From: Candidatus Shapirobacteria bacterium
GTDB lineage: Bacteria; Patescibacteriota; Microgenomatia; 0-14-0-10-38-17
Assembly: GCA_018052565.1 (NCBI GenBank)
Contig: JAGPNC010000003.1
Coordinates: forward strand, 587-64,586
Reading direction: 5' to 3'
Length of the DNA stretch: 64,000 nucleotides
Shown: positions 8,697 to 57,300 of the stretch, piece after piece
Numbering within the stretch: the stretch's first letter is position 1
Layout: the number at the start of each line of letters is the position of its first letter
The notes under the pieces: model-generated
Database searches by the model: none
What the model was told of the DNA's origin: nothing
The model's input: only the letters and a program-made list of their open reading frames with translations
Made by a program: the position numbers and the translations under genes

Positions 8697-8830
8697 TTGA
8701 AAAGTTAAAAGTTAAAAATAAAATTCAAAATGCAAAAATCAAAGTTCAAAATTGCAAGTTAAAAATTGAAAGTTTTTACTCTACTTTTGAATTTTTTCAT
8801 TGTAAGTAATTTTGACTTTTGACTTTTTTA
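8697..8830. repeat. AT-rich palindromic k-mer spacer element (aaaagtYaaaagt family)
   Basis: Left arm aaaagttaaaagttaaaaat…caaaattgcaagttaaaaattgaaagt, mirrored by ttttgaatttt…ttttgacttttgactttt. Confidence 0.8.
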
Positions 8831-9026
8831 TTATACCCTCTTGCAAAAGATAATAAGATCTCTAATAATATATCATAAATATCCCTTAAGGTGCGGGCCA
8901 TTGTCATTTTGACGAGAAGGCCAAATTTTAAAAAACAGGGAAGACCCTAATTTTTGGGGAACGGTGCCGCCGCGGTGAAAGTCCGAAGACCTACCTTAAG
9001 GAAGCTGTCCCGGCCAGGACAAGATT

Positions 9027-10007
9027 ATGAATAAAGAAACTCTTGCTTGCGACCCTAACCGTTGGCAAAGCCAAACTGCCCCTTCCCAAATCGAAGCTGA
9101 GCTTGCCTTTTATGGCCTTGAGCACGGTCGCTCCCCCGAATATTTAGGCGCCAACGGTATTTTTGTTATCGGCTATTACTATCGCCTTTATCCCGAAAGA
9201 AATACCATTCACTCCTTTAACCCCCAAACGGGGAAAGAACTCAAAAAAGATGTTCGCGAGATGTTTGACGTGAGCACTCCGCGCGGCCGGCGGGAAAAGA
9301 AAGGCTTTGAAAAACTAACACGGCTTTTTTTTGAGGGAGATCCGGGAGATATTTTTGTTTGGCTAAGCCCGGCCGAAGAAAATCTTTATCCTTATCCTCG
9401 TCTTTATTTTGCCCAAAAGAAAGAGGCCAACCTTATCGAGGCATACGACTTAAACACCGATCTTAGTTTTGCCCAACTTAGAGAGCTTCTTTATCTTCTA
9501 AGCAAACAAGAAATTACGGCCCAAAATAGTGAGGAAATTCTTGGTTTCCCCCTACTGCTTCGGCAAGAAGGCCCCCAAATCATTTTTGAAAGTCTTAAGA
9601 AAGTCGGTGTCAAAGAACTCCATGGTGTCCCTCTTGATGTCGTGGAAAACCAATTCCGGGAAAAAGTTTGGGAAAAGCTTCTTTTGGAGAACCGTTCCCT
9701 TGCTTCTAAGGTTGCCACCGAAGTTTGGGAGAGCGTTGACCAGGAAAATTTTTATCAAGCAAGGCTGTGGGTGGCTTGGTACGAAGAAGCCATCAGAAAA
9801 CAGGGGGGATTCTTTGCTCCCCGATCAAGTTGCGGCGGCGCGTTAACCGCAAACTTTTCCCCAAAAGCGCCCTTTTATTACGGCCTGCCCATTTTCGGTT
9901 TGGAAATTACTCGTTCTCGAACTTGCCCTGTCTGCGGCTGGCCGCTTTTAAGCCCCGTTCCCGTTGGCGGTCATTGCCCCCATTGCGGCACCGAAAGGAA
10001 ATGTTAA
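9027..10007 (+). CDS. hypothetical protein with C-terminal CxxC…CxxC zinc-ribbon
   Basis: A clean 326-aa ORF with CPVCG…CPHCG at the C-terminus. Confidence 0.5.
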   Translation: MNKETLACDPNRWQSQTAPSQIEAELAFYGLEHGRSPEYLGANGIFVIGYYYRLYPERNTIHSFNPQTGKELKKDVREMFDVSTPRGRREKKGFEKLTRLFFEGDPGDIFVWLSPAEENLYPYPRLYFAQKKEANLIEAYDLNTDLSFAQLRELLYLLSKQEITAQNSEEILGFPLLLRQEGPQIIFESLKKVGVKELHGVPLDVVENQFREKVWEKLLLENRSLASKVATEVWESVDQENFYQARLWVAWYEEAIRKQGGFFAPRSSCGGALTANFSPKAPFYYGLPIFGLEITRSRTCPVCGWPLLSPVPVGGHCPHCGTERKC

Positions 10008-10016
10008 AATACCAAT

Positions 10017-10727
10017 ATGGGAAAGAAACCCTTCTTTTCGGTGATCATCCCCGCTTTTAATGAGGAAAAAACTATTGCCCAAACGCTGGAGTCTGTTTTA
10101 AAACAAGATTTTCCCCAAAACCAATACGAGATAATTGTGGTTAATAATAACTCCACCGACAAGACCGCTGCCATTGTTAAAAAATTCCCAAGTATTAAAT
10201 TAGTTAACGAACCAAAACGGGGGTATGTTTATGCCCTCACAAGAGGGGCGAAAGAAGCAAGGGGAGAGGTTCTCGCCTTTACGGACGCAGACACTGTCGT
10301 TCCTCCAGATTGGCTTAGCCGGTATCAGAAAGCCTACCAAAACCAAGGCGTGGTTTACGCCGGCGGCGGGGCTAATTTCCAGCCTAAATTTGGTTTTATC
10401 TTTCTGGTTCAGGAATTTCTTAATTTTTTTGGTTTTGTCACCAAAATTGCTTCGGGCTTTAACTTCTCTCTTCGCCGCTCTACCTACCAAAAAGTAGGCG
10501 GCTTTAACCCGCAAATTAATTTTCATGCCGACACCGATTTAGTCCTCCGCGCCAAAAAAGAAGGCAAGGCCGTTTTCCTTTCAAAAAATCGCGTCACTAC
10601 CTCCAGTCGTCATTACCGCGGCTTTAAAGGAATTGTCTATACGGTTAAGGGAATCGTCAACGCCATTTGGCTGTTCTTATTTAAAAAAACTCTTTTTTGG
10701 CATTTTGGCGAAGTCCGTTGTCTATAA
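10017..10727 (+). CDS. family 2 glycosyltransferase
   Basis: SVIIPAFNEE and DADT GT-A motifs. Confidence 0.75.
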   Translation: MGKKPFFSVIIPAFNEEKTIAQTLESVLKQDFPQNQYEIIVVNNNSTDKTAAIVKKFPSIKLVNEPKRGYVYALTRGAKEARGEVLAFTDADTVVPPDWLSRYQKAYQNQGVVYAGGGANFQPKFGFIFLVQEFLNFFGFVTKIASGFNFSLRRSTYQKVGGFNPQINFHADTDLVLRAKKEGKAVFLSKNRVTTSSRHYRGFKGIVYTVKGIVNAIWLFLFKKTLFWHFGEVRCL

Positions 10728-10742
10728 AGAATAATATTAAAA

Positions 10743-11123
10743 TTGCCAAAAAAAGGAAGAAATGCTAAACTAACAATAATGATGACCAAACTTCTAGCGC
10801 AAGTTGACATTGGCCAAGAAACTCATATTAATCCTACCCAGGGAATCGGCGAGGCTCCTCAATTTAAAAGCATCCTGGGGTTAATTTCTACCATTCTTCC
10901 AAATTTGTATATGGCCGCTGGGTTAATCCTGCTTTTTTTCTTGATTTTTGGCGGCGTTATGGTTATATTAGGAGCAGGCAAGGGCGAAAGCCAACAAGCC
11001 GAGCAAGGCAAGAAAATTATTACCAACACCTTAATTGGCTTTCTGGTTATTTTTCTAAGCTATTGGATTATCCGCCTCGTGGAAATTATCACCGGGGCAA
11101 GAATTTTTAAATCGGGTTTATAA
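10743..11123 (+). CDS. TrbC/VirB2-family pilin-like protein (paralog 1; the true start may be the internal Met near 10779)
   Basis: Two TM segments flank a G-A-G-K-G-E motif. The hydrophobic C-terminal helix is LIGFLVIFLSYWIIRLVE, as in the paralogs. Confidence 0.55.
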   Translation: MPKKGRNAKLTIMMTKLLAQVDIGQETHINPTQGIGEAPQFKSILGLISTILPNLYMAAGLILLFFLIFGGVMVILGAGKGESQQAEQGKKIITNTLIGFLVIFLSYWIIRLVEIITGARIFKSGL

Positions 11124-11129
11124 ATAACC

Positions 11130-11499: not shown

Positions 11500-11760
11500 C
11501 TTTTAATAAGCAAGCGCAAGGCGCAGCTTGAAATGTCAAATCTCAGGTAGAAATGTCAAAACGGAAATCTCAAAACTCAAAACTACATGTCAAAACTCAA
11601 ATCTAGAAAACAATTTTCTTTAGAAAAGTTTTGCCATTTGACATGTAGATTTACCATTTAAGATTTGCGATTTGAGATTTTTTGCCATTTGCCATTTGAG
11701 ATTTCTACTCGAGTTTTGAGATTTTCCAAAAACTGAGTAATTTAGCAATTGAGCAATTTA
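11500..11760. repeat. AT-rich palindromic spacer element, variant k-mer (aaatgtcaaatctcaaaactc)
   Basis: Arms gaaatgtcaaatctcag…ctcaaaactcaaaac versus gttttgagattt…tttgccatttgagatttc. Confidence 0.8.
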
Positions 11761-19869: not shown

Positions 19870-20235
19870 GTTAAAATTTTCTTATTCACTTTTGACTTTT
19901 TATTTGTACTTTTGACTTTTAAATTTTAACTTTTAACTTTTCTTCTCAATATTGCCCCTTAATGCTACACCTTAAGGGTGGGTTCCTGCTTGCCCCCTTG
20001 GCATTCCAGACTATCAAGCTCCGCTCTTGCGCGGCAAGACGATTTATTGTAAGCTAGAATTGTTTAAATTCAAAAGTTAAAATTCAAAATGCAAAATTAC
20101 AATTCAAAATCCAAAATTTTTAATTTTAACTTGCAATTTTTCCGCCAGAGGCGCAGGCCAGAGGTCTGTCGGCCTTGGGCAGAGACCCGCCTTGGGCGGG
20201 AACTTTTGACTTTTAACTTTTGACTTTTAACTATT
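19870..20235. repeat. composite spacer: AT-rich arms + GC-rich nested-hairpin core (core at 20141-20200)
   Basis: The core is tccgccagaggcgcaggccagaggtctgtcggccttgggcagagacccgccttgggcggg, flanked by acttttgacttttaacttttgactttt arms. Confidence 0.8.
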
Positions 20236-21119: not shown

Positions 21120-21275
21120 AAAAAAGGGGCTAAAATAACTAAAATTCAAAGTTCAAAATGCAAAATGAAAAATGAAAAATTAAAATGCAAAAATTATTAA
21201 AAAAAGAAAATTCTTTTTACACTTTACATTTTATTTTATTTTGGACTTTTAAATTTTAATTTTTAACTTTTTTCC
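21120..21275. repeat. AT-rich palindromic spacer element
   Basis: aaaattcaaagttcaaaatgcaaaatgaaaaatg… mirrored by ttttggacttttaaattttaatttttaactttt. Confidence 0.75.
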
Positions 21276-22054: not shown

Positions 22055-22270
22055 TGTAATCTCAAATCTTAAAACGCAAATGTCAAATCTAAAACGCAAA
22101 ACGCAAACCTGCCTTGCCGGCAGGCAGGATTCAGGATTAAAAAATGCAAAAATCAAAGATCAAAAATCAAAATGAAAATGTAAAATGCAAAAAGAATTTT
22201 CTTTGGATCTTAACAATTTTTGAATTTTAATCTTTCATTTTGACTTTTAACTTTTGACTTTTAATTTTTT
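22055..22270. repeat. composite spacer with GC hairpin core (cctgccttgccggcagg at 22108-22135)
   Basis: k-mer arms (aatctcaaatct…, …ttttgacttttaacttttgactttt) around the GC hairpin. Confidence 0.75.
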
Positions 22271-22274
22271 TTCC

Positions 22275-24129: not shown

Positions 24130-24355
24130 ACCTAATTCAAAAGTCAAAAGTCAAAATTCAAAATTACAATTAAAAAGTTAAAAGTTTTTCGCTTTACTTT
24201 TAACTTTTAGCTTTTGACTTTTTCCGCCAGAGGCGCACCCGCCTTGGGCGGGATCAGCCTTGGGCAGAGACCCGCCTCGGGTGGGAACTTTTGACTTTTA
24301 ATTTTTAATTATTACATTGCGTTCTAACTTTTGACTTTTAACTTTTGACTTTTTC
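24130..24355. repeat. composite spacer with GC core (24223-24285)
   Basis: Core tccgccagaggcgcacccgccttgggcgggatcagccttgggcagagacccgcctcgggtggg. Confidence 0.8.
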
Positions 24356-28790: not shown

Positions 28791-29258
28791 ATGAAAAGAA
28801 ATAATCTTTTTCTTGTTATCATCTTAGTCTTTGGAGTTGCTTTCTTATTCCTCAGGCAATTTATTGTCCAAACCGAAGAGGAAAATTCTTTATTCGAAAA
28901 AGATTACCACTCCATCTCGCCCACGAAAGAAGTTATTTCGCCCACGAAAGAAGTTATTTCGCCCACGAAAGAAGTTATTTCGCCCACGAAAGAAGTTATT
29001 TCGCCCACGAAAGAAGTTATTTCGCCCACAGAAGAAGAAATAGACTATCTCCAAAAAGAAAAACTCATAAGCCTTCTTCCTGTTAGAAAGTCAGATTTTG
29101 ATATGGAATATCTAGCTCAAGATAACGTCTTTATTGTTTTGATCTCCGCCAATGACTTCAATGCCGGAAAAAGAAAAGCAATCAGTTGGCTGGAAAGCCA
29201 AGGCATTAGTAACTGGGAAAAATTACCTCTTATCTGGGGAAAAAAGGGAGGATTTTAA
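28791..29258 (+). CDS. hypothetical membrane-anchored protein containing 6x SPTKEVI heptad repeats
   Basis: N-terminal TM, a tandem 21-bp coding repeat, and a C-terminal domain paralogous to 29308. Confidence 0.5.
   Translation: MKRNNLFLVIILVFGVAFLFLRQFIVQTEEENSLFEKDYHSISPTKEVISPTKEVISPTKEVISPTKEVISPTKEVISPTEEEIDYLQKEKLISLLPVRKSDFDMEYLAQDNVFIVLISANDFNAGKRKAISWLESQGISNWEKLPLIWGKKGGF
28917..29042. repeat. 6 x 21-bp perfect tandem repeat (tcgcccacgaaagaagttatt), last unit degenerate
   Basis: Read directly. It lies in frame within CDS 28791-29258, encoding (SPTKEVI)x5 plus SPTEEEI. Confidence 0.9.
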
Positions 29259-29735: not shown

Positions 29736-30842
29736 TCATTCTTCCTGAAGTCTTACCGGCATAATCACATGAGAAAAAGAGTCACTTTTGGGAAAATAAA
29801 AAAGAGCGGGTGATAAAGAATCGTTTAACGTTATCGCCAGCGACTCTTCTTCGCTTGCCTCAACTAAATCCAACAAAAAACGAAAGTTAAAAGCGATTTT
29901 TTGCTTCGGCCCGGCAACTTGCGCCTCAAGCCTGCTCTTGTTTTCCCCTACCTGAGGAGAATTAGCGGTAATAACCAACTCATTCTCTTTTGCCTCAAGC
30001 TTCACGATGTTGGCCGATTCGCGGGCAAAAATGGCCGCCATTTTTATGGCCCGCCGAAAATCCTCTTTTTCTAAAACTACTTTTGTCTTCCCTTCCTTAG
30101 GAATTACCTCCTCAATATTGGGAAAACTGCCTTCTAAAAGTCTTGAAGAAAGCTCAATATTGGGGAGAAAAAAAACCGCCTGCTTTTCCTCATTTGAAAG
30201 GCCCATTTCCACCTCTTCTTGGTCAGTTTTAACCCGACTAACTTCTGCCAAGGCATTCGCCGGCACAATAAAGCTTTGTTCCCCAAAGGAAGAAGCAAAA
30301 ACAACCCTTTTTAAAGAAAGCCGATAGCCATCGGTGGCGGCCAACTGGCATTCTTTACCTCTAATTTTGAACTGAACTCCTCCCAAAACCGGCCGGCTCT
30401 CATCATTAGTGGCGGCAAAAATAGTCTCCCGGATAGCCTGATTTAAGGCGGTAGTTTTAAAACTTATCTTCGAGGAAGAAATGGTTGAGATTTGGGGAAA
30501 TTCTTCCGCAGGCATTATCGGAAAAAGCGCCTGAAAACCGCCACAGGCAACCTCTAAGCCTTCTTTTTTTAAAAAAAGATCCACCTTCCCGGCCGGCGGC
30601 AAAGAGTTAACAAATTCCAAAAAAGGACGAGCCAAAACGGTTGTTTTTCCCTCATTTTCAATTTTGGCACCTACAAAATAGTTAATTCCCATTTCCAAGT
30701 TAGTAGCCGAGATTTTCAGTCGATTTTTTTCCGTGGCTAAAAGAATATTTCCCAATACCGGTAGTGTTGGCCTTGCGGGAAGAAAACGAAAAACAGTATT
30801 TAAGGCAGAGCTTAGGTTTTCTTGAAGAAGGGTAAGTTTCAT
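29736..30842 (-). CDS. dnaN: DNA polymerase III beta sliding clamp
   Basis: The N-terminus (MKLTLLQENLSSALNTV…TLPVLGNILL) and the length are typical. The gene lies immediately downstream of dnaA. Confidence 0.85.
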   Translation of the reverse strand: MKLTLLQENLSSALNTVFRFLPARPTLPVLGNILLATEKNRLKISATNLEMGINYFVGAKIENEGKTTVLARPFLEFVNSLPPAGKVDLFLKKEGLEVACGGFQALFPIMPAEEFPQISTISSSKISFKTTALNQAIRETIFAATNDESRPVLGGVQFKIRGKECQLAATDGYRLSLKRVVFASSFGEQSFIVPANALAEVSRVKTDQEEVEMGLSNEEKQAVFFLPNIELSSRLLEGSFPNIEEVIPKEGKTKVVLEKEDFRRAIKMAAIFARESANIVKLEAKENELVITANSPQVGENKSRLEAQVAGPKQKIAFNFRFLLDLVEASEEESLAITLNDSLSPALFYFPKSDSFSHVIMPVRLQEE

Positions 30843-31269
30843 TGTTTAAGTTTTTAGATTATATCTTTATGGTATTAGTTTTAGTAGGGAATGTCAATAA
30901 GTGGATTGGGCTTTAGGTTGACTTGACAATTAATGTTGTTTATTTATTTTTACCTGTTTTTTCCGCTTATTTTTTTTCTAATGCCTTGTATTTCCTTTTT
31001 ATTTTTGGGTTTTTTTAGTGAGAAAAAACAGGGGCAAGAAAAGGTTTTTTGTGGAAAAAAATAAGTCCGCTGTTGAAAACTAAAAATAAACTTTTCCACA
31101 ACTAATTTTTGTTTTCGACTAATAATGACTATTCTAACGGAACCATTTTAGCTAAATCAATTAAAACTGGTGTCAACTTATAAGTTGAAATTCAAAATTC
31201 AAAAGTCAAAATTTAAAATTGCAAGTTAAAAGTTAAAAGTTTTTTTGCTTTACTTTTGGATTTTGACTT
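30843..31269. other. oriC: putative chromosomal replication origin (dnaA-dnaN intergenic) with DnaA-box-like 9-mers
   Basis: TGTGGAAAA at 31050-31058 and TTTTCCACA at 31092-31100 are each 8/9 matches to TGTGGATAA/TTATCCACA. A third box lies at 32671-32679, upstream of dnaA. AT-rich tracts are present. Confidence 0.5.
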
Positions 31270-31270
31270 T
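31190..31270. repeat. AT-rich palindromic spacer element (upstream of dnaA start)
   Basis: gaaattcaaaattcaaaagtcaaaatttaaaattgcaagttaaaagttaaaagttttt, mirrored by ttttggattttgacttttaa. Confidence 0.75.
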
Positions 31271-32613
31271 TAATTATTAGCCCCTATCTCTTTTCTAATT
31301 TCTACCACGTGGTGGCGGATGGTTTCATTGGTGGTAAATTCCTGGTTAATTTTTTCAATCGCATGGATAACGGTGCTGTGGTCGCGATTGCCCAAAAGTT
31401 CGCCAATTTTCATTAGCGGTAAGTTTAGATCTTTTCTTAAAAGATACATGGCAATGTGGCGGGCGTTAACTAACTCCGCCTTTCGGCTTTTCCCGCAAAG
31501 ATCGCGGATTTTAAAAGAAAACTCTTTGGCGGTTTGGGAAAGAACTTTGCGGGGGGTAATTTTAATAAGGTTTTTTTGGGGACGGCCGTAAAACTTGCTG
31601 GCAAAATCTAAGGTCAGGGGAGTATTTTCCGCTAAAGCCCGGGTTTTAAGTTGGAGAAGAGCCCCCTCAAGCTCACGGGCATTGCTTTCAATGGTTTGGG
31701 CCAAAAAAGAAAGCACTTCCTCGTGAACGGCAAAACCTTTTTCCCTGGCCTTTTGCTTTAAGATCGCCAGGCGCATTTCGTAGTCCGGCGGCTGGATGTC
31801 AACGGTTAGGCCGCCCATAAAACGAGAGGTAAGACGATTCTCTAGGGGTTGGATTTCCTCGGGCCGCCGGTCTGAGGTTAAAACCACTTGCCGGCCGGCT
31901 AAATAAAGATAGTTGAAGGTATGGAAGAACTCCTCTTGGGAATATTCTTTGCCGGCAATAAATTGGATATCGTCAATTAATAAAACATCAACTTGGCGAT
32001 ATTTTCTTTTAAAGCTGGTTATTGTTTTGCTTTGCAAGGCGGCCACTAACTCATTAGTGAAAGTTTCCGCGGTCGCGTAAAGAATGTTAAGGTTAGGATG
32101 TTTTTCGGCGATGGCGTTGCCAATGGCTTGAATTAAATGGGTTTTGCCTACCCCTACTCCACCCCAAACAAAAAAGGGGTTATAGGCTTGGCCGGGGTTT
32201 TCAACGATGGCTTGGGCGGCAGCATGGGCAAAATTATTGGAAGAACCAACCACAAAGGAGGAAAAATTATAATAGGGGAGCAGGCCGGTTTTAGGATTAA
32301 AACTCTCTTTTCTTTCTTTTTTTTCAAAAAGCGGCCCTATTTTAACGGGCGTTTTTTTAGGACGCTGGCTAATAGTAAAGACGAGACTATTTTTTTCTCC
32401 CGTTTGGCGGTCCAAAATTTCTTTAATTAAAGAGTAATAGCGGCTTTCAACTAGCTCTTGAAGGTAGGCGCTGGGGCAGCCAATGGTGGCGACATTATTT
32501 TCAAGCGATAAAAGTTGGGTTTGGGAGAGCAAGGCCTGATAATTAGTTTTGGAAACAGCAATTTTCAACTCTTCCTGGATATTTTCCCAAAGGGCGTTTT
32601 GATTCATTTTCAA
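31270..32613 (-). CDS. dnaA: chromosomal replication initiator protein DnaA
   Basis: AAA+ Walker A GGVGVGKTHL, LLIDDIQF, and a C-terminal DnaA-box-binding HTH (VNARHIAMYLLR). Confidence 0.9.
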   Translation of the reverse strand: MKMNQNALWENIQEELKIAVSKTNYQALLSQTQLLSLENNVATIGCPSAYLQELVESRYYSLIKEILDRQTGEKNSLVFTISQRPKKTPVKIGPLFEKKERKESFNPKTGLLPYYNFSSFVVGSSNNFAHAAAQAIVENPGQAYNPFFVWGGVGVGKTHLIQAIGNAIAEKHPNLNILYATAETFTNELVAALQSKTITSFKRKYRQVDVLLIDDIQFIAGKEYSQEEFFHTFNYLYLAGRQVVLTSDRRPEEIQPLENRLTSRFMGGLTVDIQPPDYEMRLAILKQKAREKGFAVHEEVLSFLAQTIESNARELEGALLQLKTRALAENTPLTLDFASKFYGRPQKNLIKITPRKVLSQTAKEFSFKIRDLCGKSRKAELVNARHIAMYLLRKDLNLPLMKIGELLGNRDHSTVIHAIEKINQEFTTNETIRHHVVEIRKEIGANN

Positions 32614-32695
32614 AAGAAAAAAGAAAAAGGAGCTTTAACGAAGGCAGGCAACTATACTAATAATAGCAAGTTTTCCACAATTTTCAAGGGGATTT

Positions 32696-34253: not shown

Positions 34254-34446
34254 AGCAAAAAAGAGGAAATTTTGGTAGGATGGAAAAGAAAGTCAAAAGC
34301 CAAAAGTCAGAAGTTAAAAATAATAAACAGAATAAATTACTATTAGCAGTTGGGGATTGGTAATTGGTAGTTAGGGAAAAACATTCTCCCCAATTTCTAA
34401 CTACCATCTACTAACTACTATCTTATCTTAATAGTATCGTTTTACC

Positions 34447-36189: not shown

Positions 36190-36310
36190 AAATGATCAAA
36201 AATTTAAAAGTTAAAAGTCAAAAGTTCCCGCCCAAGGCGGATCCGCCTCTGGCGGAAAAATTGCAAGTTAAAATTAAAAATTTTGGATTTTGAATTGTCA
36301 TTTTGCATTT
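36190..36310. repeat. composite spacer with short GC core (36226-36255, inverted orientation)
   Basis: gttcccgcccaaggcggatccgcctctggcgga between aaaagtcaaaagt arms. Confidence 0.75.
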
Positions 36311-36413
36311 TGACTTTTGATTTTTGAATTTAATTAAAAAACACATTTTGATTGGTAGTAATTGATGAGTAATCACGATTTTTGTCAAGGGGGATAATTT
36401 ACCGTTAATTTTT

Positions 36414-37094
36414 ATGCCTGATCTTTATACCTCCTCACCAGCCAAAGAAGCGGAGACGCCCAAAAGAGAGAAAGAAGGAAAGCCGGCCCTTAAGGCTCAC
36501 GTCTCTCCTTTTAAGAAAATTGTCAAGGAAAATCTTCCCCCCAAGTGGGGTTTGGTAATTAATCCCCAGAAAATCAAGTTTGCCAGCCAGGAAAAAGATG
36601 AGGAAGTGCTGCTTTTGATCCGCCGCCACCCGATTACCAATTTTATCTGGATGGCCGCCTTTGTTTTAATGATTTTTGCTCTGCCGGCCGCCCGTCATTT
36701 TCAGTGGCTAGCGCCTCTCCCCTCTAATTTCCAAATGGTGATTGCTTTTGCCTGGTTAACGTTGGCGCTGGCAGTTTTTTGGGGCGGGTTTTTAAGCTGG
36801 TTTTTTAATGTTAATATCGTTTCCAACGAAAGAGTGGTGGACATTGATTTTTATAATCTTATCTACCGGGAGGTAACCGATGCGGAGGTGGGGAAAATTC
36901 AAGATGTCACTCATAAAATGGGCGGCCTCTTTGGGCTAATTTTTAATTATGGCGACGTTTTTATCCAAACGGCCGGGGCTAAACCGGAAATTGAATTCTT
37001 AAGAGTCCCCCGGCCGGCGCAAATAGCGGCAGTTTTGCGCCAGATTAGAGAAGAGGCGGAAAAAATGGAGAAATTAAATAGCATCAATGATTGA
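36414..37094 (+). CDS. membrane protein with bacterial PH (YdbS/YdbT-like) domain
   Basis: Two TM helices followed by a bPH-like segment. Confidence 0.4.
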   Translation: MPDLYTSSPAKEAETPKREKEGKPALKAHVSPFKKIVKENLPPKWGLVINPQKIKFASQEKDEEVLLLIRRHPITNFIWMAAFVLMIFALPAARHFQWLAPLPSNFQMVIAFAWLTLALAVFWGGFLSWFFNVNIVSNERVVDIDFYNLIYREVTDAEVGKIQDVTHKMGGLFGLIFNYGDVFIQTAGAKPEIEFLRVPRPAQIAAVLRQIREEAEKMEKLNSIND

Positions 37095-37326
37095 TCTTCA
37101 AAATTGGCTTAACATATTTCAGGGCTTTTCTTTTTGGTCGGCGGGGCGAATTTTTCTCCTGATTTATTTTTTGGGCTATTTAATTTTTAATCTTATTTTG
37201 GGTCGGCAAATTACTTTAATGAGTCAGCTTTTCGGGACAAGCCTTGAGCCCCTTTTAAAAATTTTTAACTGGCTGCTTTTTGGCTTGGGAGTTTTGGGAT
37301 TTTTGATGACCCTGACACTGGGATAA
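37087..37326 (+). CDS. small membrane protein
   Basis: A 79-aa hydrophobic ORF overlapping the stop of the upstream gene. Confidence 0.3.
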   Translation: MIDLQNWLNIFQGFSFWSAGRIFLLIYFLGYLIFNLILGRQITLMSQLFGTSLEPLLKIFNWLLFGLGVLGFLMTLTLG

Positions 37327-37369
37327 GCATAAATTGGGAAAAAAGAGAGGATTTGTGATATTCTTTTAA

Positions 37370-39151
37370 GTGATGGTTGAAGACAAGAAAAACTGGGCGA
37401 TTAAAGTTGGAAAAATTGTTGGGCCGCAAGACGAGACCCATTGGTCACAAACCCATGTTTTTGTGCCGCCGGAAAAAGAAAAGCGGGAGAAAAAGGGCTC
37501 TCTTTTGGCAGTTTTTTCCCTTGCTTCAGAAAGTTCTTTTCCTCCCGATTTGGGAAAGGAATTGATTTTTCGTCTTCAGGAAGAATATTATGGTCAAGCC
37601 CAGGGTTGGCCAATGCAAAACTTAATTGCCGCGGTGGAAAAGGTGGCAGCCGAGGTAGAAGAAAGCCGGTTGGGAGTGGAACTGGAAATTACGGCCGCAG
37701 TTTTTTGGCGGGGAATTTGGTATTTTATCACCAATGGCGAAGGGCGGGCTTATGTTAAGCGCGGCCCGACTCTTTCGGCGGTTTTATCAGGGGAAGGGAA
37801 AATTTCCTCTTCGTCGGGAAAGGCAGAAGCAGGCGACTTAATTCTTCTGGGCAACAATTTATTTTTCCAAAATTTACCGGCGGAAAGAGTGCGGCAGGCC
37901 CTTGAGACTTTTAGTCCCGCCTTGGCGGCAGAAACGCTAAGCCCATTTTTAGCTAAAGAAGGAAGGTTGGGGGCGGCGGCCTTGGCGGTGAAGCTAGAAG
38001 AAAGAGAAAAAGAAAGTGGCGAGAAAGAAAAAAGCGGGGGAGAAGAAAGACTAAATTTTTCGGGGGTAAAAGCAGGCCTTTCAAAATATGGCAAACCGGT
38101 CGTGCTGGTATTCTTTGTTTTACTCCTCATTTGGGCGGCTTTCTGGGGTGTAGGCAAGAAGAAAGAAAGTGATTTGTCAAAACAGCAAAAAATTTTAGTT
38201 CAGGCGGAGGAGAAAATTTCTCAGGCTCAAGCCTTGGCAGAACTTAACCCTCTTCAGGCGAAAACGATCCTCGAGGAGCAAAAAGCAGTTTTGGAAAAAA
38301 TTAAGGGTGAGGGAGAGTTGGGGGCCAAGAAGGAAGAGCTGGCGATTCGGCTCGAACAGCTTTTGACAAAAGTGAATCAGCCAGAAGAAGAAACCCCTTT
38401 GCCAAAAGAAGAATGGCCGGTTTTTTTAGAGACGCAAGAAATAAGCGATGTGGCTAATTTAGGCAAAACCATCTACATTCTTTCCCCGGAGTCGGGAAAG
38501 ATTTTCCAAATTGATTGGGAGGAAAAAACCAGCGCTGTTTTCTTAGGCGATGAAAAAATTAGCAAAATGCGCCTTATCGTTCCCCAGCTTAATAAAATGT
38601 TGCTTTTGGCTGACGACGGTATTCATCAGGCTGATAAAAGTAAATTGAGCCCCATTATCGAAAAAGAGGAAAGCTGGGGAAAAATAGTGAGCATGAGCTC
38701 CTGGCTCGGTAATCTCTACCTCTTAGATAGCACTAAAGATCAGATTTGGCAATATCCGGCTACTGCTAGCGGCTTTGGGGCAGCAAGGGAATGGATTAAG
38801 GAAAAGAAGCGGGATTTTTCCGAGCAGGCGAGAATGACCATTGATGGCGCGGTTTGGATTGTGGATCAGGGTACGGTTTTTCGCTATTGGAAGGGCTATG
38901 AGGAAAAAGTCTTTTCGCCCGAAGGCTTGGGGAAGGAAGTTCTGCCCTATACCACAGCCGATTTTGACCTTCTTTATCTTTGGGACAAAGAAAAAGGGAA
39001 AATAATTTCTCTAAACAAAGAAGACGGGAAAATTACGGGCGAAAAAAATATTGGCAAAATTGAAGGCGGCAGCAACTTTATTGTTTCTCCTGACCAAACA
39101 ATGGCTTTAATCGGGGCGGGAAAGAAGCTGGTAGAAATAGAGCTAAAATAA
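37370..39151 (+). CDS. hypothetical membrane-spanning protein (N-terminal cytoplasmic domain, one TM, C-terminal beta-rich domain)
   Basis: 593-aa ORF. I recognise no motif. Confidence 0.45.
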   Translation: MMVEDKKNWAIKVGKIVGPQDETHWSQTHVFVPPEKEKREKKGSLLAVFSLASESSFPPDLGKELIFRLQEEYYGQAQGWPMQNLIAAVEKVAAEVEESRLGVELEITAAVFWRGIWYFITNGEGRAYVKRGPTLSAVLSGEGKISSSSGKAEAGDLILLGNNLFFQNLPAERVRQALETFSPALAAETLSPFLAKEGRLGAAALAVKLEEREKESGEKEKSGGEERLNFSGVKAGLSKYGKPVVLVFFVLLLIWAAFWGVGKKKESDLSKQQKILVQAEEKISQAQALAELNPLQAKTILEEQKAVLEKIKGEGELGAKKEELAIRLEQLLTKVNQPEEETPLPKEEWPVFLETQEISDVANLGKTIYILSPESGKIFQIDWEEKTSAVFLGDEKISKMRLIVPQLNKMLLLADDGIHQADKSKLSPIIEKEESWGKIVSMSSWLGNLYLLDSTKDQIWQYPATASGFGAAREWIKEKKRDFSEQARMTIDGAVWIVDQGTVFRYWKGYEEKVFSPEGLGKEVLPYTTADFDLLYLWDKEKGKIISLNKEDGKITGEKNIGKIEGGSNFIVSPDQTMALIGAGKKLVEIELK

Positions 39152-39204: not shown

Positions 39205-39375
39205 AAAATATTTAACGCAAAAATCAAAGATTAGAGATTAGAACCTAAATCAAAGCTCAAAAATATTTTTACATTTTGTTTTTAGTCTTTTCCGCCAGAG
39301 GCGCAGGCCAGAGGTCTGTCGGCCTTGGGCAGAGACCCGCCTTGGGCGGGAACTTTTAACTTTTGACTTTTAACT
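39205..39375. repeat. composite spacer with GC core (39291-39350), adjacent to the tmRNA 3' end
   Basis: The core is identical to the 20141-20200 copy. Confidence 0.8.
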
Positions 39376-39385
39376 TTTCTGCACA

Positions 39386-39749: not shown

Positions 39750-39900
39750 AAAAAACTAAATTCAAAATTCACAAGTCAAAAATCAAAAGTACAAGTAAAA
39801 ATTCAAAATTGAAACAAAAACTTTTAACCTTTTACTTGTAATTTTGACTTTTGAGTTTTAACTTTTGACTTTTCTACGCAATTTGGCCATTTAGCAATAG
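39750..39900. repeat. AT-rich palindromic spacer element between smpB and ssrA
   Basis: aaattcaaaattcacaagtcaaaaatcaaaagtacaagtaaaaattcaaaattg… mirrored by ttttacttgtaattttgacttttgagttttaacttttgactttt. Confidence 0.75.
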
Positions 39901-40319: not shown

Positions 40320-40410
40320 AGGTTAAAATTCAAAATTAAAAATTTAAAAGTTCAAGTAAAAATTCAAAAGTAAAACAAAAAAAATTTTGACTTTTGACTT
40401 TTAACTTTTG
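40320..40410. repeat. AT-rich palindromic spacer element
   Basis: ggttaaaattcaaaattaaaaatttaaaagttcaagtaaaaattcaaaagtaaaac… mirrored by ttttgacttttgacttttaacttttgaattt. Confidence 0.75.
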
Positions 40411-40451
40411 AATTTGGCTTTTATTTGAATAGCAAGTAATGCCCCCTACTT

Positions 40452-41174: not shown

Positions 41175-41254
41175 AAAGATAGTACGAGATGAACTTATTG
41201 AAGTATGGTTTTCTTTTATTGGCAAAAAAATTACTTTCCTGTGATTGGTTAAGT

Positions 41255-41360
41255 CAAAATTCAAAATTTAAAAGTCAAAAGTGGAAGTTAAAATTCAGAA
41301 GTAAAGCAAAAAACTTTTAGCTTTTAATTTTTAATTTTGAATTTTGACTTTTGAATTTTT
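41255..41360. repeat. AT-rich palindromic spacer element (3' of tRNA-Arg CCG)
   Basis: gtcaaaattcaaaatttaaaagtcaaaagtggaagttaaaattcagaagtaaagc… mirrored by ttttagcttttaatttttaattttgaattttgacttttgaattt. Confidence 0.75.
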
Positions 41361-41438: not shown

Positions 41439-41816
41439 GGAAAAAGTATTAAGTATTATGTATTAGGTATTAAGTTATAGAATCAAAAGTCAAAAAAGAA
41501 CAAAAGGCAAGAGATCATTAAATCACGAGATTAAAAGGATAGCAACTCGTAACTAGTAATACGTCATTCTGACCCCACTCTGACGGGGGAAAAATTTCCT
41601 TCGCTTCGCTCATGGGCAGGATAACGATTGGGCGTAATTTGTTTTTGACAAAAGCGCTCTTAAGCGACGATATACTTTTTAAACCACCGTCTGCGGTGGC
41701 AGGCAGGAAAAATCCGTCGGCTCACGGTTAAAAGTTATCCTCCCACCGCAGATCGTTTTTTAATTTTTTCCTGCCCGCCGAAACCCCATCGTGTACAGGC
41801 ACGCCGGCAGGAAAAT

Positions 41817-42095
41817 TTATAAATTATTTTTCATCCAATCAGTTACTTCTTTTGAAACATTAAAAGTAGCCCAGCCTGTTCGCGTTACATCAATTACTAA
41901 TACCTTATCATTAGCATCAATTTTTGATTTTATTTCGTCTCGAACTTCAGAAACAGTCTTTGTGGTTTTAACAAGCCAAACAGATTGGAGCGGTTTGGCC
42001 CAATAAGGATATGATTTAAGATATTGAGATAGAAGTTTGTAGTCTTCGTATGTTTCGGGCAATCCCAAATCGTAAGTTATTAAAAAAGTATTCAT
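41817..42095 (-). CDS. small protein with Cas2/VapD-like sequence pattern (function unknown)
   Basis: A 92-aa ORF. It starts MNTFLITYDL, then runs …YPYWAKPLQSVW…DKVLVIDV, which parallels the Cas2 layout (ß1 YD, YG-RVQ-SVF, D-x-V-R-Y). Confidence 0.35.
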   Translation of the reverse strand: MNTFLITYDLGLPETYEDYKLLSQYLKSYPYWAKPLQSVWLVKTTKTVSEVRDEIKSKIDANDKVLVIDVTRTGWATFNVSKEVTDWMKNNL

Positions 42096-42105
42096 ATTTT
42101 TCCGT

Positions 42106-42396
42106 TTATTTCTCGCTACTTGCCTTAAAATAATAACCGATTATAAAACCAAGTGGCCCAGACAATATACCAGAGATAGCGAGTAGAAGATCTTTATTAT
42201 CTTGAATGCTATATTCTTTTAAAGTGCTAATCGATAAAGCAGCGGCTACTATCGCAAGGTATGCAATCACATAAATAAGGGCTATGTAGCTTCTTGTTGA
42301 TTCTCTTTTGGTCGCTCTCTGTTCTGCTGGGCCAGCAAGTTGGCTAGCCCCCGGCGGCGTTAAATCATCTATGTTTTGTTTTTCCTTCATCGCCAT
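42106..42396 (-). CDS. small two-TM membrane protein
   Basis: A 96-aa ORF. Confidence 0.35.
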   Translation of the reverse strand: MAMKEKQNIDDLTPPGASQLAGPAEQRATKRESTRSYIALIYVIAYLAIVAAALSISTLKEYSIQDNKDLLLAISGILSGPLGFIIGYYFKASSEK

Positions 42397-42398
42397 AA

Positions 42399-42636
42399 TT
42401 ATAAATCTCGTACATTGATTACTTCTCTTTTGCCATCTTTGGTTTCAATAATAATTTTGTATTCCCCGGCATCCTTAATAGCGTCTATTATTTTTATTCC
42501 TTTAACTAAAACATCTCCAAGCTTATCTTCCGAAATAGAAAGGTAATTGGCTAACTCTTTGAGTTTTTTCAACGCACTATTACCAAAACTAACATCGAAC
42601 CTTTCTTGTGTTTTTCTTTGTTCGGTTGTTGGCTTA

Positions 42637-42647
<11 letters not shown>
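42399..42647 (-). CDS. hypothetical small protein
   Basis: An 82-aa ORF whose start overlaps the upstream gene. Confidence 0.35.
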
Positions 42648-44284
<1,637 letters not shown>

Positions 44285-44462
44285 TTACTTGATTTTTAAT
44301 AATAGTTCAAATTTCGCCAGCGCGCCTGCGCGCGATAGGGTTTCGGTGAGCGGGTAAAATGAAGGGGGCTTTATAGTAAGAAATTTTTCGTCCGCAAGCC
44401 GACAGATTTTTCCTACTCACCGTTGCAAGCAGAATAATGCGGAGAACGCGTCGCGAATAAAC

Positions 44463-44552: not shown

Positions 44553-44599
44553 AAAAAAAACGCCTAAATTTAAACTAAAGACGCTAATTATAGCTAGGT

Positions 44600-44695
44600 C
44601 AAAATTCAAAATTTAAAATTCAAAAGTGAGGTAAAAAGCTTTTAGCTTTTAACTTGTAATTTTGAATTTTGCCTTTTGCATTTTGAATTTTTTTA
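44600..44695. repeat. AT-rich palindromic spacer element (between tRNA-Ser and tRNA-Arg GCG)
   Basis: ggtcaaaattcaaaatttaaaattcaaaagtgaggtaaaaagc… mirrored by ttttagcttttaacttgtaattttgaattttgccttttgcattttgaattt. Confidence 0.75.
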
Positions 44696-44770: not shown

Positions 44771-44819
44771 GAGAGAAGTATCAAGTATTAAGTATTATGT
44801 ATTAGGTATTAAGTATGAA

Positions 44820-45000
44820 AAATCTCAAATGTCAAATCTCAAGTAGAAATGTCAAAACGCAAATCTCAAAACTCAAAACTAAGAAATATTTTAAATTTTA
44901 AAAAGTTTTAACGTTTACCGTGTAGTTTTGCCATTTGACATTTGCGATTTGAGATTTTTTTGCCACTTGAGTTTTGAGATTTCTAAGCCATTTAGCGATT
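44820..45000. repeat. AT-rich palindromic spacer element, aaatgtcaaatctcaa variant
   Basis: Same variant k-mers as the 11500-11760 copy. Confidence 0.75.
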
Positions 45001-47452: not shown

Positions 47453-47804
47453 AGAGGTATAATAAAAAAGTATCAATTATCATATATTAGATATTAAGTA
47501 TAAAAATTACAGAAGATAAAAAGAAACTGCCCCTAACCTGTCATCCTGATGAAAATCAGGATCTATCTACAGCAAGGAAATTCCAAATTACAAACAATTT
47601 CTAATAACCAAAATCCTAAATTCAAAATAAAAAGAGAAGGCGGACAATGCGAGTAGCGTTTCTTGTTTAGAAAATTTAGAAATTGGAATTTAGAATTTGT
47701 TTGCGATTTGCCTCCCTGCGGGAGGTCTCTTGTAGGGAGATTATTTGGGGCTTGGAATTTTCTTGCCGTAACAACTCGGTGATAGAGCAATTTACCCGCT
47801 AACG

Positions 47805-54300: not shown

Positions 54301-54324
54301 TTGAAATACTATGTAGTATTTCAA
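54301..54324. promoter_or_regulatory. palindromic operator-like motif, copy 4 (TTGAAATACTA-TG-TAGTATTTCAA)
   Basis: Perfect 11-bp arms, about 110 bp upstream of the nucleoside hydrolase gene. Confidence 0.4.
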
Positions 54325-54433
54325 TAAATAGAGAAAGACGGAGCAGCCGACATTAAATGCTCTAAAGCATTTCAGAATAAGGAAAAGTTGCTTGCTAAAA
54401 AGTAAAGACAGCCGCTTTTGATAAAATCATTTT

Positions 54434-55360: not shown

Positions 55361-55513
55361 TTTATAATGAAATTATTAAGGCCTTTTTTGACGGCGCCAA
55401 AAGAGGAAGCAGCGCTTTTTGGCCCCTATTTTTGAAGTGGAATTATCGGCTTGGGTTAGCCGGCTTGAAAAGCGTTTAATTAGTTTTTGTGATATAATAG
55501 GGCAATAATAATT

Positions 55514-55783: not shown

Positions 55784-55843
55784 GAGCCTAAAATCTACAA
55801 GCGCGATTGACTTCGGTTTTAATTAATTTTAAAATAGAAAGTA

Positions 55844-56821
55844 ATGGAGGAAGGAAAAACGGCATTGGCGGAGCCGGTGGATGCCTCAAGCTTTCAAACC
55901 GAAAAGCCCAAAGCTTCAAACAGCACGAAAATTAATTGGTGGCTAATCATCGCGATTCTCCTTTTAATCGCCCTCCTGGCGGCAGGCGCTTATGCTTTTT
56001 ACCTGAAAAATCAAAATGAGAAGTTAGCGCCCTTGGAGGAGCAGGAAACGGCGACGCCCAGCGGGCAAACAGCAGCGCCTACCGGCGAGCCAACGGTGGC
56101 TTTTTCTTCTTCTGTTGAAGCCTCCCCTTCCCCATCGGCGGCCCAAAAAGAATCGGAGTTAATTTCTTTAGACGATACTTGGAATAAATATATTAATTAT
56201 CGTCTTGGCTTTTCTATTAATGTCCCCAAAATGATGATGCATGGGAGTGGCGCGTGCCGGTGGGTGCTGGAAGGCGATCATTCCTACCGGCCGGCGCCGA
56301 AATTAGTGCCGGTGAAAGTTTTTGAGGAGGACAATATGGTTTACATCGTTAATGGCTCCTATGCCGAGTTGGGAGGAGAGACAAGGGAAGAAATCGCCGA
56401 GGGGATAAGATCTTATTTTTCCGAATGCAACGAGGTTATCAATTCTTTGGCCAAAGCTAAGGATAAGGAAAATTATTACCAGCGCGGCTGGCAGATTATT
56501 GTGGAGGAGGCCAAAAATGATGAGGATCTGGACCGCTTTATTAAGAAATATTTTGGCCCTGATTGCCGTTTGGGCGACCGGATTCATGATCGCCAAGAGG
56601 GAGTTTACAAGATCTCTATTGATCAGGGAATTAAAAGCCACGAGGTAGGAGAAGCGCCCGAGGAAACCGGCTGTTTTGTGAATTATGCCTACGCAATTAA
56701 GTATTTTCCCGAAAAAAATAAGGTGGCTAGTTGGGATTTAGGGCAGGACTTTACTTTCTATCAGGACATCGACCACCCCTTCGACGCCCAAATGGCCGAA
56801 AGCTTTGAATTTCTGAAGTAA
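55844..56821 (+). CDS. hypothetical membrane-anchored protein
   Basis: One TM helix, a Pro/Ser/Thr linker and a C-terminal globular region. Confidence 0.45.
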   Translation: MEEGKTALAEPVDASSFQTEKPKASNSTKINWWLIIAILLLIALLAAGAYAFYLKNQNEKLAPLEEQETATPSGQTAAPTGEPTVAFSSSVEASPSPSAAQKESELISLDDTWNKYINYRLGFSINVPKMMMHGSGACRWVLEGDHSYRPAPKLVPVKVFEEDNMVYIVNGSYAELGGETREEIAEGIRSYFSECNEVINSLAKAKDKENYYQRGWQIIVEEAKNDEDLDRFIKKYFGPDCRLGDRIHDRQEGVYKISIDQGIKSHEVGEAPEETGCFVNYAYAIKYFPEKNKVASWDLGQDFTFYQDIDHPFDAQMAESFEFLK

Positions 56822-56849
56822 GACGCCAGGGGTTCAGTTTAAAGAAAAA

Positions 56850-57164
56850 TCAGGAGACTTTCTGGGGCCAGGGCTCGCCGCTTTCTTTTTTGGCCTGGTT
56901 GCCAATTTCCCACTGGTCATAAATTTTCTTCTCCACATTTATCTCCACTTTTTTGCCGTCGTTGGTTTCAAAGTAAAGAGTGTAAAGATCCTTTGTGTAG
57001 GGGCTGTCGTCGTCTTCCCATTCCAGGTGCTTTTTGTCCACCAGCTTTCCTTCCCAAACGGATGCTTTTCTCTTCTCGCCTCTTCTCTTGACGGATTTGG
57101 CAAAAAGAAAAACCGGCAGGCCGAAAATAACTAAAACCGCGATTAAAAAAATTAGCGCTCTCAT
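56850..57164 (-). CDS. small membrane-anchored protein
   Basis: A 104-aa ORF with an N-terminal TM. Confidence 0.35.
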   Translation of the reverse strand: MRALIFLIAVLVIFGLPVFLFAKSVKRRGEKRKASVWEGKLVDKKHLEWEDDDSPYTKDLYTLYFETNDGKKVEINVEKKIYDQWEIGNQAKKESGEPWPQKVS

Positions 57165-57224
57165 CTTTAATTATCATTAAGAACCGTTTTTCGGCAGTTG
57201 TCAAGAGAAAATAAATGGCTAAGT

Positions 57225-57300
57225 TGCATGAAAATTCAAAATTCAAAATTCAAAAGTCAAAATTACAAGTTAAAATTCAAAAGTAAGATTAAACCTTTGC
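57225..57300. repeat. AT-rich k-mer spacer (single arm) preceding a TATAAT box
   Basis: gaaaattcaaaattcaaaattcaaaagtcaaaattacaagttaaaattcaaaagtaag. Confidence 0.6.

Follow-up and report, generated by a model that had tools for sequence, protein, structure and literature searches.

Inverted arrays of seven-nucleotide repeats and GC-rich hairpins at gene boundaries in a Candidatus Shapirobacteria genome

The intergenic DNA of Candidatus Shapirobacteria (Patescibacteria) raises the question of what its repeats are. In a stretch of 64,000 nucleotides (contig JAGPNC010000003.1 of assembly GCA_018052565.1, positions 587 to 64,586; hereafter the window), AT-rich repeats recur at the boundaries of genes, most of them paired as palindromes and a few enclosing GC-rich hairpins. 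An earlier note on this DNA had taken them for one family of composite palindromes, possibly mobile, that punctuates the genome. We asked what these elements are, how they could have spread and what they might do where they sit. The structural and evolutionary part of the answer is well supported: the elements are arrays of 7-nt units, mostly in inverted pairs and in places carrying hairpins like those of repetitive extragenic palindromic (REP) sequences, and they turn over very fast. The reading we favour, with middling confidence, is that they are fast-turnover non-coding repeats that combine REP-like hairpins with heptamer arrays akin to short tandemly repeated repetitive (STRR) sequences, spread by slippage and recombination and generic at gene boundaries. 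The mode of spread we infer, and the function of the elements is the weakest part of the reading.

Arrays with a period of seven nucleotides

A lag-identity scan of the window (42% GC) found 33 arrays, 1,779 nt in total, at lag 7, compared with 0, 0, 1, 0 and 0 arrays at the control lags of 5, 6, 8, 9 and 10, and Tandem Repeats Finder (TRF) returned periods of 7, 14 and 20-21 at the same places. Thirty of the 33 arrays are intergenic, in a window of which 14.9% is intergenic DNA (binomial p=5.8e-22). They cluster into about 21 element loci that together cover 2,502 nt, or 26% of all intergenic DNA in the window and 34% of that within positions 8697-57300, the span described by the earlier note. 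A non-coding repeat system at gene boundaries is present where the note had placed it. Its density is about one element per 2.3-3 kb, where the note had given one per 4 kb, and the claim that nearly every intergenic region of a locus resembling a type IV secretion system (T4SS) is occupied was overstated: five of about eight regions of at least 40 nt carry an element, and none of the many short ones does.

What the elements share is the 7-nt period and not particular k-mers, the degenerate versions of which the note had treated as the defining trait. At least six unit families coexist in the window, namely AAAAGTY/AAAATTC, AAATCTC/AAATGTC/AAAACGC, AAGTATT, CGCAAAG-like, AAATTCC/AATTTAG and GGTAATT, and relatives add TAACTSG, ACGAATG, AAATCAC and ACTAAGA. 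The elements do not form one family with a shared GC core. That there is no true family at all, and that the pattern is generic AT-rich low-complexity sequence, is hardly credible. The intergenic DNA of the window is AT-rich, as this explanation would have it, but it is refuted by the specificity for period 7, by BLAST-level homology between loci and between genomes, by two identical 60-nt cores (below) and by the folding z-scores; an absence of significant alignments, which the note had named as grounds for dropping its claim, was not what we found. We also rejected a CRISPR (clustered regularly interspaced short palindromic repeats) array, in agreement with the note, on account of contiguous 7-mers in inverted arms and the absence of spacers, and phase-variable contingency loci, given that the units are imperfect (65-90% matches) and length differences in 7-nt steps were not seen.

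At 13 loci an A-rich array is followed by its reverse-complement T-rich array, so that a T-rich arm faces outward on either strand. The arm pairs fold into hairpins of 20-50 bp, with energies for the long hairpins of -17 to -76 kcal/mol, the lower end being reached by the longer composites. All eight elements compared with dinucleotide shuffles folded better than these (z -2.0 to -7.1; dG -17 to -49 kcal/mol). The description of each element as one long imperfect palindrome accordingly holds for most arrays, and fails for those that stand alone, such as the T-rich ACTTTTR array at 19888-19941 (plus strand), the A-rich array at 34289-34330, which shares a divergent region (element 34289-34425) with a GGTAATT/CTAACTA palindrome at 34350-34425, and the A-rich AAAATTC array at 57231-57290 (plus strand). 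The mirror symmetry, moreover, lies at the level of the unit family and not of the individual element: scored against the right arms of other loci, the complementarity of an element's own arms ranks anywhere from 1 to 12 of 13, and a unit-shuffling test of arm pairing was significant for only about half of the elements.

Although the data are few, nothing indicates selection on RNA structure, since own arms pair no better than foreign ones, no strand is favoured and compensatory changes are lacking. Sense and antisense folding energies of the elements showed no consistent bias and were equal on average. Between the paralogues at 44827 and 11531 we counted no double change that keeps pairing, six single changes that keep it and nine that break it. 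For 11 copies of a hairpin family described below, RNAalifold gave a trivial 10-bp consensus without covariation, from an alignment made unreliable by the repeat registers. A search with Rfam covariance models, at the gathering threshold and at E<=1, matched the transfer-messenger RNA (tmRNA) and tRNAs, and none of the elements.

GC-rich cores, dispersed copies and turnover between relatives

One family of GC-rich cores comprises copies at 20141-20200, 24223-24285, 36226-36255 (reverse complement) and 39291-39350 and a degenerate copy at 6660-6720. The copies at 20141-20200 and 39291-39350, both on the plus strand, are identical at 60/60 nt, as the earlier note had seen, and consist of module A (CCGCCAGAGGCG(G)), a middle module C of about 30 nt and module B (CCCGCCTTGGGCGGG). 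In general terms the hairpins are CCGCCAGAGGCGG plus CCCGCCTTGGGCGGG, the middle module being optional. The core at 24223-24285 (plus strand) is a mosaic with the order A-B-C'-B', and that at 36226-36255 (minus strand; CCGCCAGAGGCGGATCCGCCTTGGGCGGG) is a minimal A-B core, antisense to both neighbouring genes. The degenerate copy (plus strand) lies within the minus-strand open reading frame (ORF) 6646-8394 of pyruvate:ferredoxin oxidoreductase (POR), whose ~20 final codons (…VPAQGGLLPEADPAGGGAGGKIQ*) it provides; the stop codon at 6646-6648 follows closely. Two further GC hairpins that the note had counted in the same set, at 22108-22135 and 47707-47745, are unrelated, so that four of its six copies belong together. 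The fold of modules A and B has an energy of -20.9 kcal/mol (z -3.7), and the four intergenic copies are short, GC-rich, imperfect palindromes in extragenic DNA, which bears out their REP-like nature.

The earlier note had placed the core at the palindrome centre, but it lies inside the T-rich arm, with ...CTTTT(T) on one side and AACTTTT... on the other; without it the array is continuous. Its orientation follows the T-rich strand in 7/7 copies; relative to gene direction it is sense in three (20141, 24223 and 39291) and antisense in three (36226, 6660 and one in metagenomic contig L081). Between the two identical cores, 100% identity extends only over tttt, the core and aactttt (~71 nt), and the flanking arrays have diverged. 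Since identity stops at the core edges inside diverged arrays, the core has moved as a discrete unit. In a metagenome scan, two of ten hits were relevant: L081 and L088, unrelated contigs that look like Patescibacteria, each carry a minimal A-B core flanked by CTTT(T) and AACTTTT. The other eight were chance matches in high-GC coding DNA; scans of viral contigs for the core and for an array gave 0 matches.

Around these cores the elements are composite. That at 20062-20235 consists of an A-arm (20065-20113), an inner T-arm, the GC core and an outer T-arm (20201-20235) that ends 3 nt before the GTG at 20239, and the element at 36199-36335 (z -7.1) is its paralogue in reverse orientation (70% over 112 nt). 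The double composite at 24135-24354 contains an A-arm, an inner hairpin (loop TTTTCGCTTT), the mosaic core and two T-arms, the last of which stops 4 nt before the ATG at 24359. At 39214-39378, between a plus-strand gene and the 3' end of tmRNA, CGCAAAA/AGATTAG arrays precede the core and a T-arm. The element at 22058-22135 (plus strand) combines an AAATCTC/AAAACGC array with one of the unrelated hairpins (CCTGCCTTGCCGGCAGG), and a homologous piece forms the centre of a nested palindrome in a relative (L001). The other hairpin (CCTCCCTGCGGGAGG) shares the element at 47467-47745, in the dnaG-sigma70 region, with an AAGTATC array, a GTCATCCTGA hairpin and AAATTCC/AATTTAG arrays.

Other pieces are dispersed as well. 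About 10 times, and in either orientation, the window contains a hairpin with a conserved asymmetric loop (AAAAGT-TTTTYGCTTT-ACTTTT) and a conserved TGCAAGT/ACTTGCA break, which also occurs with 86-88% identity at non-matching sites in the relatives L091 and L001. The AAATCTC/AAATGTC/AAAACGC-family palindrome at 11531-11740 and the AAATCTC/AAATGTC-family palindrome at 44820-44992, the latter in a divergent region, are paralogues (96% over 55 nt) with left arms identical at 53/55 positions and right arms at only ~80%, a disparity that looks like a partial conversion tract.

We compared the window with L001 (JBMNNJ01) and L091 (a JGI contig), which are identical where they overlap, seem to come from one organism or from two nearly identical ones and are jointly syntenic to ~15.7-49 kb of the window, and with a third relative, L092. 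Synteny is kept and matching genes are 75-86% identical at the nucleotide level between the window and L001/L091, yet the elements differ, are missing or are relocated in nearly every matching region. Among ~17 matching intergenic regions, an element is confined to the window in three and to the relative in two, and in ~11 the unit families differ or the pieces are rearranged. The palindromes at 21141-21272 (AAAATGC/AAAATGA, filling its intergenic region), 24135-24354 and 41250-41360 have no counterpart in L001/L091, where these regions measure 54, 20 and 0 nt, respectively; conversely, two genes that share an ATGA overlap in the window (37088) are separated by a 138-nt palindrome in L091. Palindromes between smpB and a double zinc ribbon (DZR) domain gene, tmRNA and smpB, a 593-aa gene and tmRNA, tRNA-Ser and tRNA-Arg, and dnaG and sigma70 differ in unit family between the genomes: tRNA-Ser and tRNA-Arg(gcg) are separated by AAAATTC units in the window and by an ACTAAGA-family palindrome in L091 and L092, and the dnaG/sigma70 region of L091 has an AAAAGTC palindrome instead. 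Between DZR and tRNA-Arg there are three states, an AAAAGTC palindrome (window), nothing (L091) and an AAATCAC palindrome (L092). Between dnaN and dnaA, the window and L001 have the same hairpin on different sides of a conserved block, and upstream of a PrgI-family gene the outer arms match and the interior differs. Concentric nested palindromes around a GC hairpin, with up to five layers, each of another heptamer family, occur at L001 9566-10030 and L091 8985-9330.

In this comparison the presence/absence polymorphism predicted by the note for mobile elements was seen, and the identical elements at identical positions that would have counted against mobility were clearly not. Insertion polymorphism between related genomes is also a property of miniature inverted-repeat transposable elements (MITEs). 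However, defined terminal inverted repeats with target-site duplication are lacking, given that the arms are arrays of variable length, filled and empty matching sites revealed no target-site duplication, and the 30 window ORFs scanned included no transposase; the elements fall short of the definition of a MITE.

Upstream of the VirB4-like gene, whose closest relatives lie in Patescibacteria metagenome-assembled genomes (MAGs) and for which an exact-protein look-up returned no record, more distant relatives have a short region with a GGAGG Shine-Dalgarno (SD) sequence; in the window and L001 the SD is missing and repeats occupy 200-430 nt. Because these outgroups carry short SD-bearing regions at the same place, the elements are gains in this lineage. 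Across 80 Patescibacteria loci around this gene, heptamer arrays reach 4.6-6 per 10 kb in Shapirobacteria-like genomes and 1-3 per 10 kb in a Microgenomates-type subset (such as the Chisholmbacteria loci L005 and L008, and L006, L007, L022, L023, L027 and L031), where they have other units and are mainly lone and direct, and they are absent from more than 50 loci that are WWE3-type or labelled "Saccharibacteria". Controls at lags 6 and 8 were near zero across all 80 loci. Upstream of the PrgI-family gene, eight Microgenomates-type loci gave a lag-7 signal of 0.48-0.71, compared with <=0.44 at other lags, with differing units; at WWE3-type loci, TATAAT takes this place, 7-10 nt ahead of the ATG.

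Placement at gene boundaries and competing explanations

Elements adjoin the start codons at 8693, 20239, 21276, 22275, 24359 and 40313, T-rich arms running up to start codons as ...TTTTCC-ATG/GTG, and the 3' ends of both tRNA-Arg genes (41364 and 44696), direct contacts that the earlier note had described correctly; they also adjoin the 5' ends of both tRNA-Arg genes and of tmRNA. The AAAAGTY/AAAATTC palindrome at 8699-8830 (z -3.3), in a divergent region, brings its minus-strand T-arm against the ATG of gene 8412-8693, and in the AAAATGC/AAAATCA palindrome at 22138-22272, 2 nt separate the end of the T-arm from the ATG (22275) of the VirB4-like gene. An AAAAGTC palindrome (39757-39875) lies between the 5' end of tmRNA, 7 nt off, and the smpB stop codon, and an AAAATTC palindrome (40325-40416) in the divergent smpB/DZR region adjoins the smpB GTG. 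The tRNA-Arg(ccg) gene has the AAAAGTC palindrome at 41250-41360 3 nt from its 3' end and an AATACTT array (41444-41475, minus strand) 5 nt upstream of its 5' end. Likewise, tRNA-Arg(gcg) has an AATACTT array immediately upstream (44776-44816, minus strand), and an AAAATTC palindrome (44598-44692) separates it from tRNA-Ser.

With regions of at least 40 nt classed by eye, arrays occupy 6/6 divergent, 2/5 convergent and ~10/28 tandem regions (Fisher p~0.006). An SD-like core at -18..-4 precedes only 4/57 genes, and TAnnnT at -16..-4 precedes 23/57, compared with 11/57 in a control window. Several genes have TATAAT 2-10 nt before the start codon, among them the gene starting at 57330, with TATAAT at 57317-57322, 7 nt before its ATG and ~27 nt downstream of the lone array at 57231-57290. 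The closeness of TATAAT and TAnnnT to start codons suggests that leaderless transcripts may be frequent in this SD-poor genome, whereas GGAGG precedes the same genes in more distant relatives. An nAnnnT hexamer lies 4-8 nt upstream of all ten starts led by arrays, compared with 28/48 other starts, and three of the ten have TTGACT a further 17 nt upstream.

From these observations we propose the following course of events. The elements may be regarded as two layers: tandem 7-nt arrays of several families, usually an A-rich array followed by its T-rich reverse complement, and small REP-like GC hairpins in fixed orientation inside the T-rich strand. Arrays would lengthen by slipped-strand replication, and recombination, gene conversion or template switching among near-identical arrays would carry copies of arms, nested inner palindromes and cores to other loci. 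We favour recombination or conversion because termini, target duplications and a transposase were not found, the cores are mosaic and core orientation is locked to the array strand; copying guided by homology would yield strand-locked cores without target duplications and without need of a transposase. The elements would persist at gene boundaries, the sites where they do little harm, in a genome that rarely uses SD sequences and probably often has the -10 box directly beside the start codon. There, the outward T-rich arm could supply an AT-rich, weak promoter-like sequence (TTGACT-N16-17-nAnnnT) upstream of starts and of tRNA and tmRNA 5' ends, and a transcribed arm pair could form a hairpin able to stop or process the transcript; processing of the RNase III type, leaving near-leaderless downstream mRNAs, would be an attractive extension. 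A generic upstream-region or weak-promoter role, with hairpins incidental in read-through, fits the bias towards 5' boundaries, the rarity of SD sequences and the tRNA and tmRNA genes led by arrays. The elements would be tolerated at gene boundaries and perhaps co-opted there.

Several results weigh against this reading. The search for a transposase covered 64 kb of the genome only. The case for slippage comes from the periodicity, no clean indel of a 7-nt step having been seen between matching or paralogous arrays, and with imperfect units present-day slippage would be expected to be slow. The sharp core edges would suit site-specific transposition equally well. Adjacency of arrays to starts as opposed to stops, though striking by eye, is not significant (p=1 in the Shapirobacteria set, p=0.08 in other loci), and a consensus promoter scan gave no excess (8 compared with 6.8±2.6; 25 compared with 16.4±4.9); the promoter-likeness of the arrays stems largely from the unit (G/A)ACTTTT itself, and scores are weak (<=8/12). 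Furthermore, at smpB/DZR, tmRNA/smpB and tRNA-Ser/tRNA-Arg the siblings keep some palindrome, of another unit family, which could reflect selection for a hairpin and not mere tolerance.

One rival reading is a dedicated terminator or insulator, the role suggested by the earlier note, in which an A-arm/U-arm stem, clamped by a GC core where one is present and followed by a U-run, ends transcripts in both directions. We consider this unlikely. The stems are long and stable, T5-T8 runs close many T-arms, module B with AACUUUUGACUUUU resembles a classical terminator, and elements follow the tRNA-Arg genes and gene 37370-39151 and are present in two convergent regions. However, full occupancy of divergent regions beside 2/5 of convergent ones argues against dedicated terminators, and T-arms that reach start codons leave no space for a separate promoter. 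The cores are antisense in 3/6 gene contexts, folding shows neither a sense-strand advantage nor compensatory change, and the same operon junctions lack elements in the sibling genome. A terminator scan does not call the elements, module B with AACUUUU fitting loosely, and terminator-like sites found by consensus were enriched only in 19.5-25 kb, mostly inside genes there. Transposition proper is a live alternative for the cores, whose ends are precise and whose insertion is strand-specific, although on balance we think it improbable; a transposase of the HUH type, such as a REP-associated tyrosine transposase (RAYT) or the TnpA of IS200/IS605, would have moved the cores, and possibly whole palindromes, inserting them 3' of a CTTTT-like target on one strand. 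Invariant flanks (TTTT / core / AACTTTT), strand-locked orientation, 100% identical 60-nt copies at two loci, the copy captured in the 3' end of a gene and insertion polymorphism all agree with it, and IS200/IS605-type elements have a hairpin at their left and right ends, as the GC cores do. Nonetheless, the window yielded no transposase, neither defined termini nor a target-site duplication mark the palindromes, only a handful of copies was seen, and the series of mosaic cores (A-B, A-C-B and A-B-C'-B') suggests recombination instead.

A different kind of explanation holds that the arrays are read. A protein that binds single-stranded nucleic acid with a 7-nt footprint, for instance a cold-shock protein (Csp) or ribosomal protein S1, could recognise them and so control translation or hairpin melting of SD-less genes. 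In its favour, the period is strictly 7 regardless of unit sequence, arrays adjoin SD-less start codons, and an array with differing units lies upstream of the matching PrgI-family gene in eight Microgenomates loci. GACTTTT resembles the T-rich heptamers bound by Csp. CspB binds one heptamer per monomer, and the same proposal has been made for TAACTGA repeats (PMC4679880). We nevertheless give this explanation little credence: arrays also adjoin tRNA and tmRNA 5' ends, where there is no translation, the units belong to widely differing families, the test of adjacency to starts versus stops gave no significant result, matching sites can do without the elements, and no candidate protein was identified. 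More speculative still is the idea that the 7-nt period, whatever its sequence, serves as the signal that marks the 5' boundary of genes and stable RNAs, replacing the SD or leader and read by a Csp- or S1-like protein or by RNA polymerase, with array pairs acting as swappable "stop/process, then restart" cassettes and some Microgenomates convergent in this with cyanobacteria and Beggiatoaceae. Such cassettes would account for siblings that keep a palindrome of a different unit family in the same region, but we hold this to be a distant prospect beside the reading of fast-turnover repeats spread by slippage and recombination.

Neighbouring features, known systems and meaning

One copy of the TTTTYGCTTT-loop hairpin, at 31188-31275, lies beside the dnaA stop codon in the dnaN-dnaA (origin) region; we set it aside as an origin-unwinding element, the same hairpin family occurring everywhere. 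The window spans the replication origin, with dnaN and dnaA both on the minus strand (29736-32613), the cumulative GC-skew minimum at ~30-31 kb and DnaA-box-like TTTTCCACA/TGTGGAAAA sites at 31050, 31092 and 32671 (regions 30843-31269 and 32614-32695). From this origin position, the T4SS-like locus to its left is head-on to replication. An island at 41439-44462, encoding a TdeIII-like restriction endonuclease, an N6/N4 DNA methyltransferase and three small ORFs, separates tRNA-Arg(ccg) and tRNA-Ser(cga), which are only 4 nt apart in L091 and L092. A 30-nt hairpin repeat, GTCATCCTGATGAAAATCAGGATCTRTCT, occurs at 2546-2575, 47539-47568 and L091 3484-3513 (~97% identical), with a related sequence at 41565. 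An 18-nt perfect palindrome, AAATACTATGTAGTATTT, lies in three intergenic regions (1857-1884, 2738-2765 and 54302-54329) and may serve as an operator or represent a further small repeat. In ORF 28791-29258, a 7-residue protein repeat is encoded by 5.8 near-perfect tandem copies of a 21-nt unit (28917-29037, 98% matches). Gene 36414-37094 shares an ATGA overlap at its stop codon with an unlisted small ORF (37088-37330; DUF5657-like in L091), so that the "intergenic" region 37095-37369 is mostly coding. Segments at 8880-9026 and 19950-20050, in the long 5' regions of genes 9027 and 20239, are GC-richer and structured-looking and had no Rfam match.

As a kind of repeat, the arrays are already known. 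TAACTGA direct repeats are found in marine Beggiatoaceae, some cyanobacteria and Bacteroidetes, mostly within a few nucleotides upstream of start codons that lack a ribosome-binding site, and S1, Csp and Csr have been proposed as readers (MacGregor 2015, PMC4679880). The arrays of the window likewise have tandem units of exactly 7 nt, are dispersed and nearly all intergenic, are strain-specific and often lie a few nucleotides from a start without a ribosome-binding site, and L001 even carries TAACTSG-type units. They differ in their many unit families, in mostly inverted arms, long or nested palindromes and tRNA and tmRNA flanks, in a patescibacterial host outside the groups named and in a start-codon bias that falls short of statistical significance. 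In cyanobacteria, intergenic heptanucleotide repeats have been known since 1990 (Mazel 1990, as given in a citing paper), earlier than in Xanthomonas and Beggiatoaceae, and STRR sequences and (TTTTGAA)n of Nostoc form arrays near start codons or promoters (PMC4692102; bioRxiv 10.1101/2022.06.06.494920). The resemblance extends to several families per genome, placement near promoters and starts, some inverted pairs and the unit itself, TTTTGAA being the GAATTTT/AAAATTC of the window. In contrast, G-rich or quadruplex units are absent from the window, the palindromic layout is the rule and not the exception, and a third of the intergenic DNA of a very small genome is affected. GGGAATC repeats of Xanthomonas, some of them convergent and inverted, occupy the same intergenic regions in related species with highly variable length and sequence, and a polymerase-footprint slippage hypothesis of Mrazek et al. 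2007 is relayed with them (PMC4692102). Ours share the intergenic heptamer arrays, the partial inversion and the variation between species at the same gene pairs, but the Xanthomonas units are G-rich and quadruplex-capable and have neither a GC-hairpin insert nor nesting. The Patescibacteria host sets the window apart from all of these (cyanobacteria, Beggiatoaceae, Bacteroidetes and Xanthomonas).

The GC cores call for a separate comparison. REP sequences and bacterial interspersed mosaic elements (BIMEs) occur in enterobacteria and pseudomonads, in alternating orientation and with a RAYT (Y1 HUH) transposase. The cores of the window resemble them as GC-rich extragenic hairpins of 13-15 nt that form mosaics and are occasionally absorbed into gene ends; they differ in that modules within a core are co-oriented and do not alternate, copies are few and embedded strand-locked in AT-rich heptamer arrays, and no RAYT was present among the 30 window ORFs scanned. 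Nostocales reportedly carry small hairpin-forming repeats inserted within tandem heptameric repeats, a finding attributed to Elhai et al. in 2008; these have unrelated sequences and belong to another phylum. In the literature searched we found no description of such arrays in Patescibacteria. What differs from the known systems is thus the phylum, the multiplicity of families, the systematic nested palindromes, the strand-locked GC inserts and the intergenic share.

Altogether, the elements explain the unusually long intergenic regions of this genome and the loss of SD sequences at some operon junctions. They are also likely to cause problems of assembly and annotation, with ORFs over-extended into arrays and the tail of a gene encoded by a repeat. 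Locally they fill about one third of the intergenic DNA, and they turn over completely between genomes with ~80% identical genes. That the 7-nt rule holds in a Patescibacteria genome of ~0.6-1 Mb shows that a genome need not be large and complex to have such arrays, and it greatly narrows the set of genes among which the generator or the reader of the arrays can be sought.

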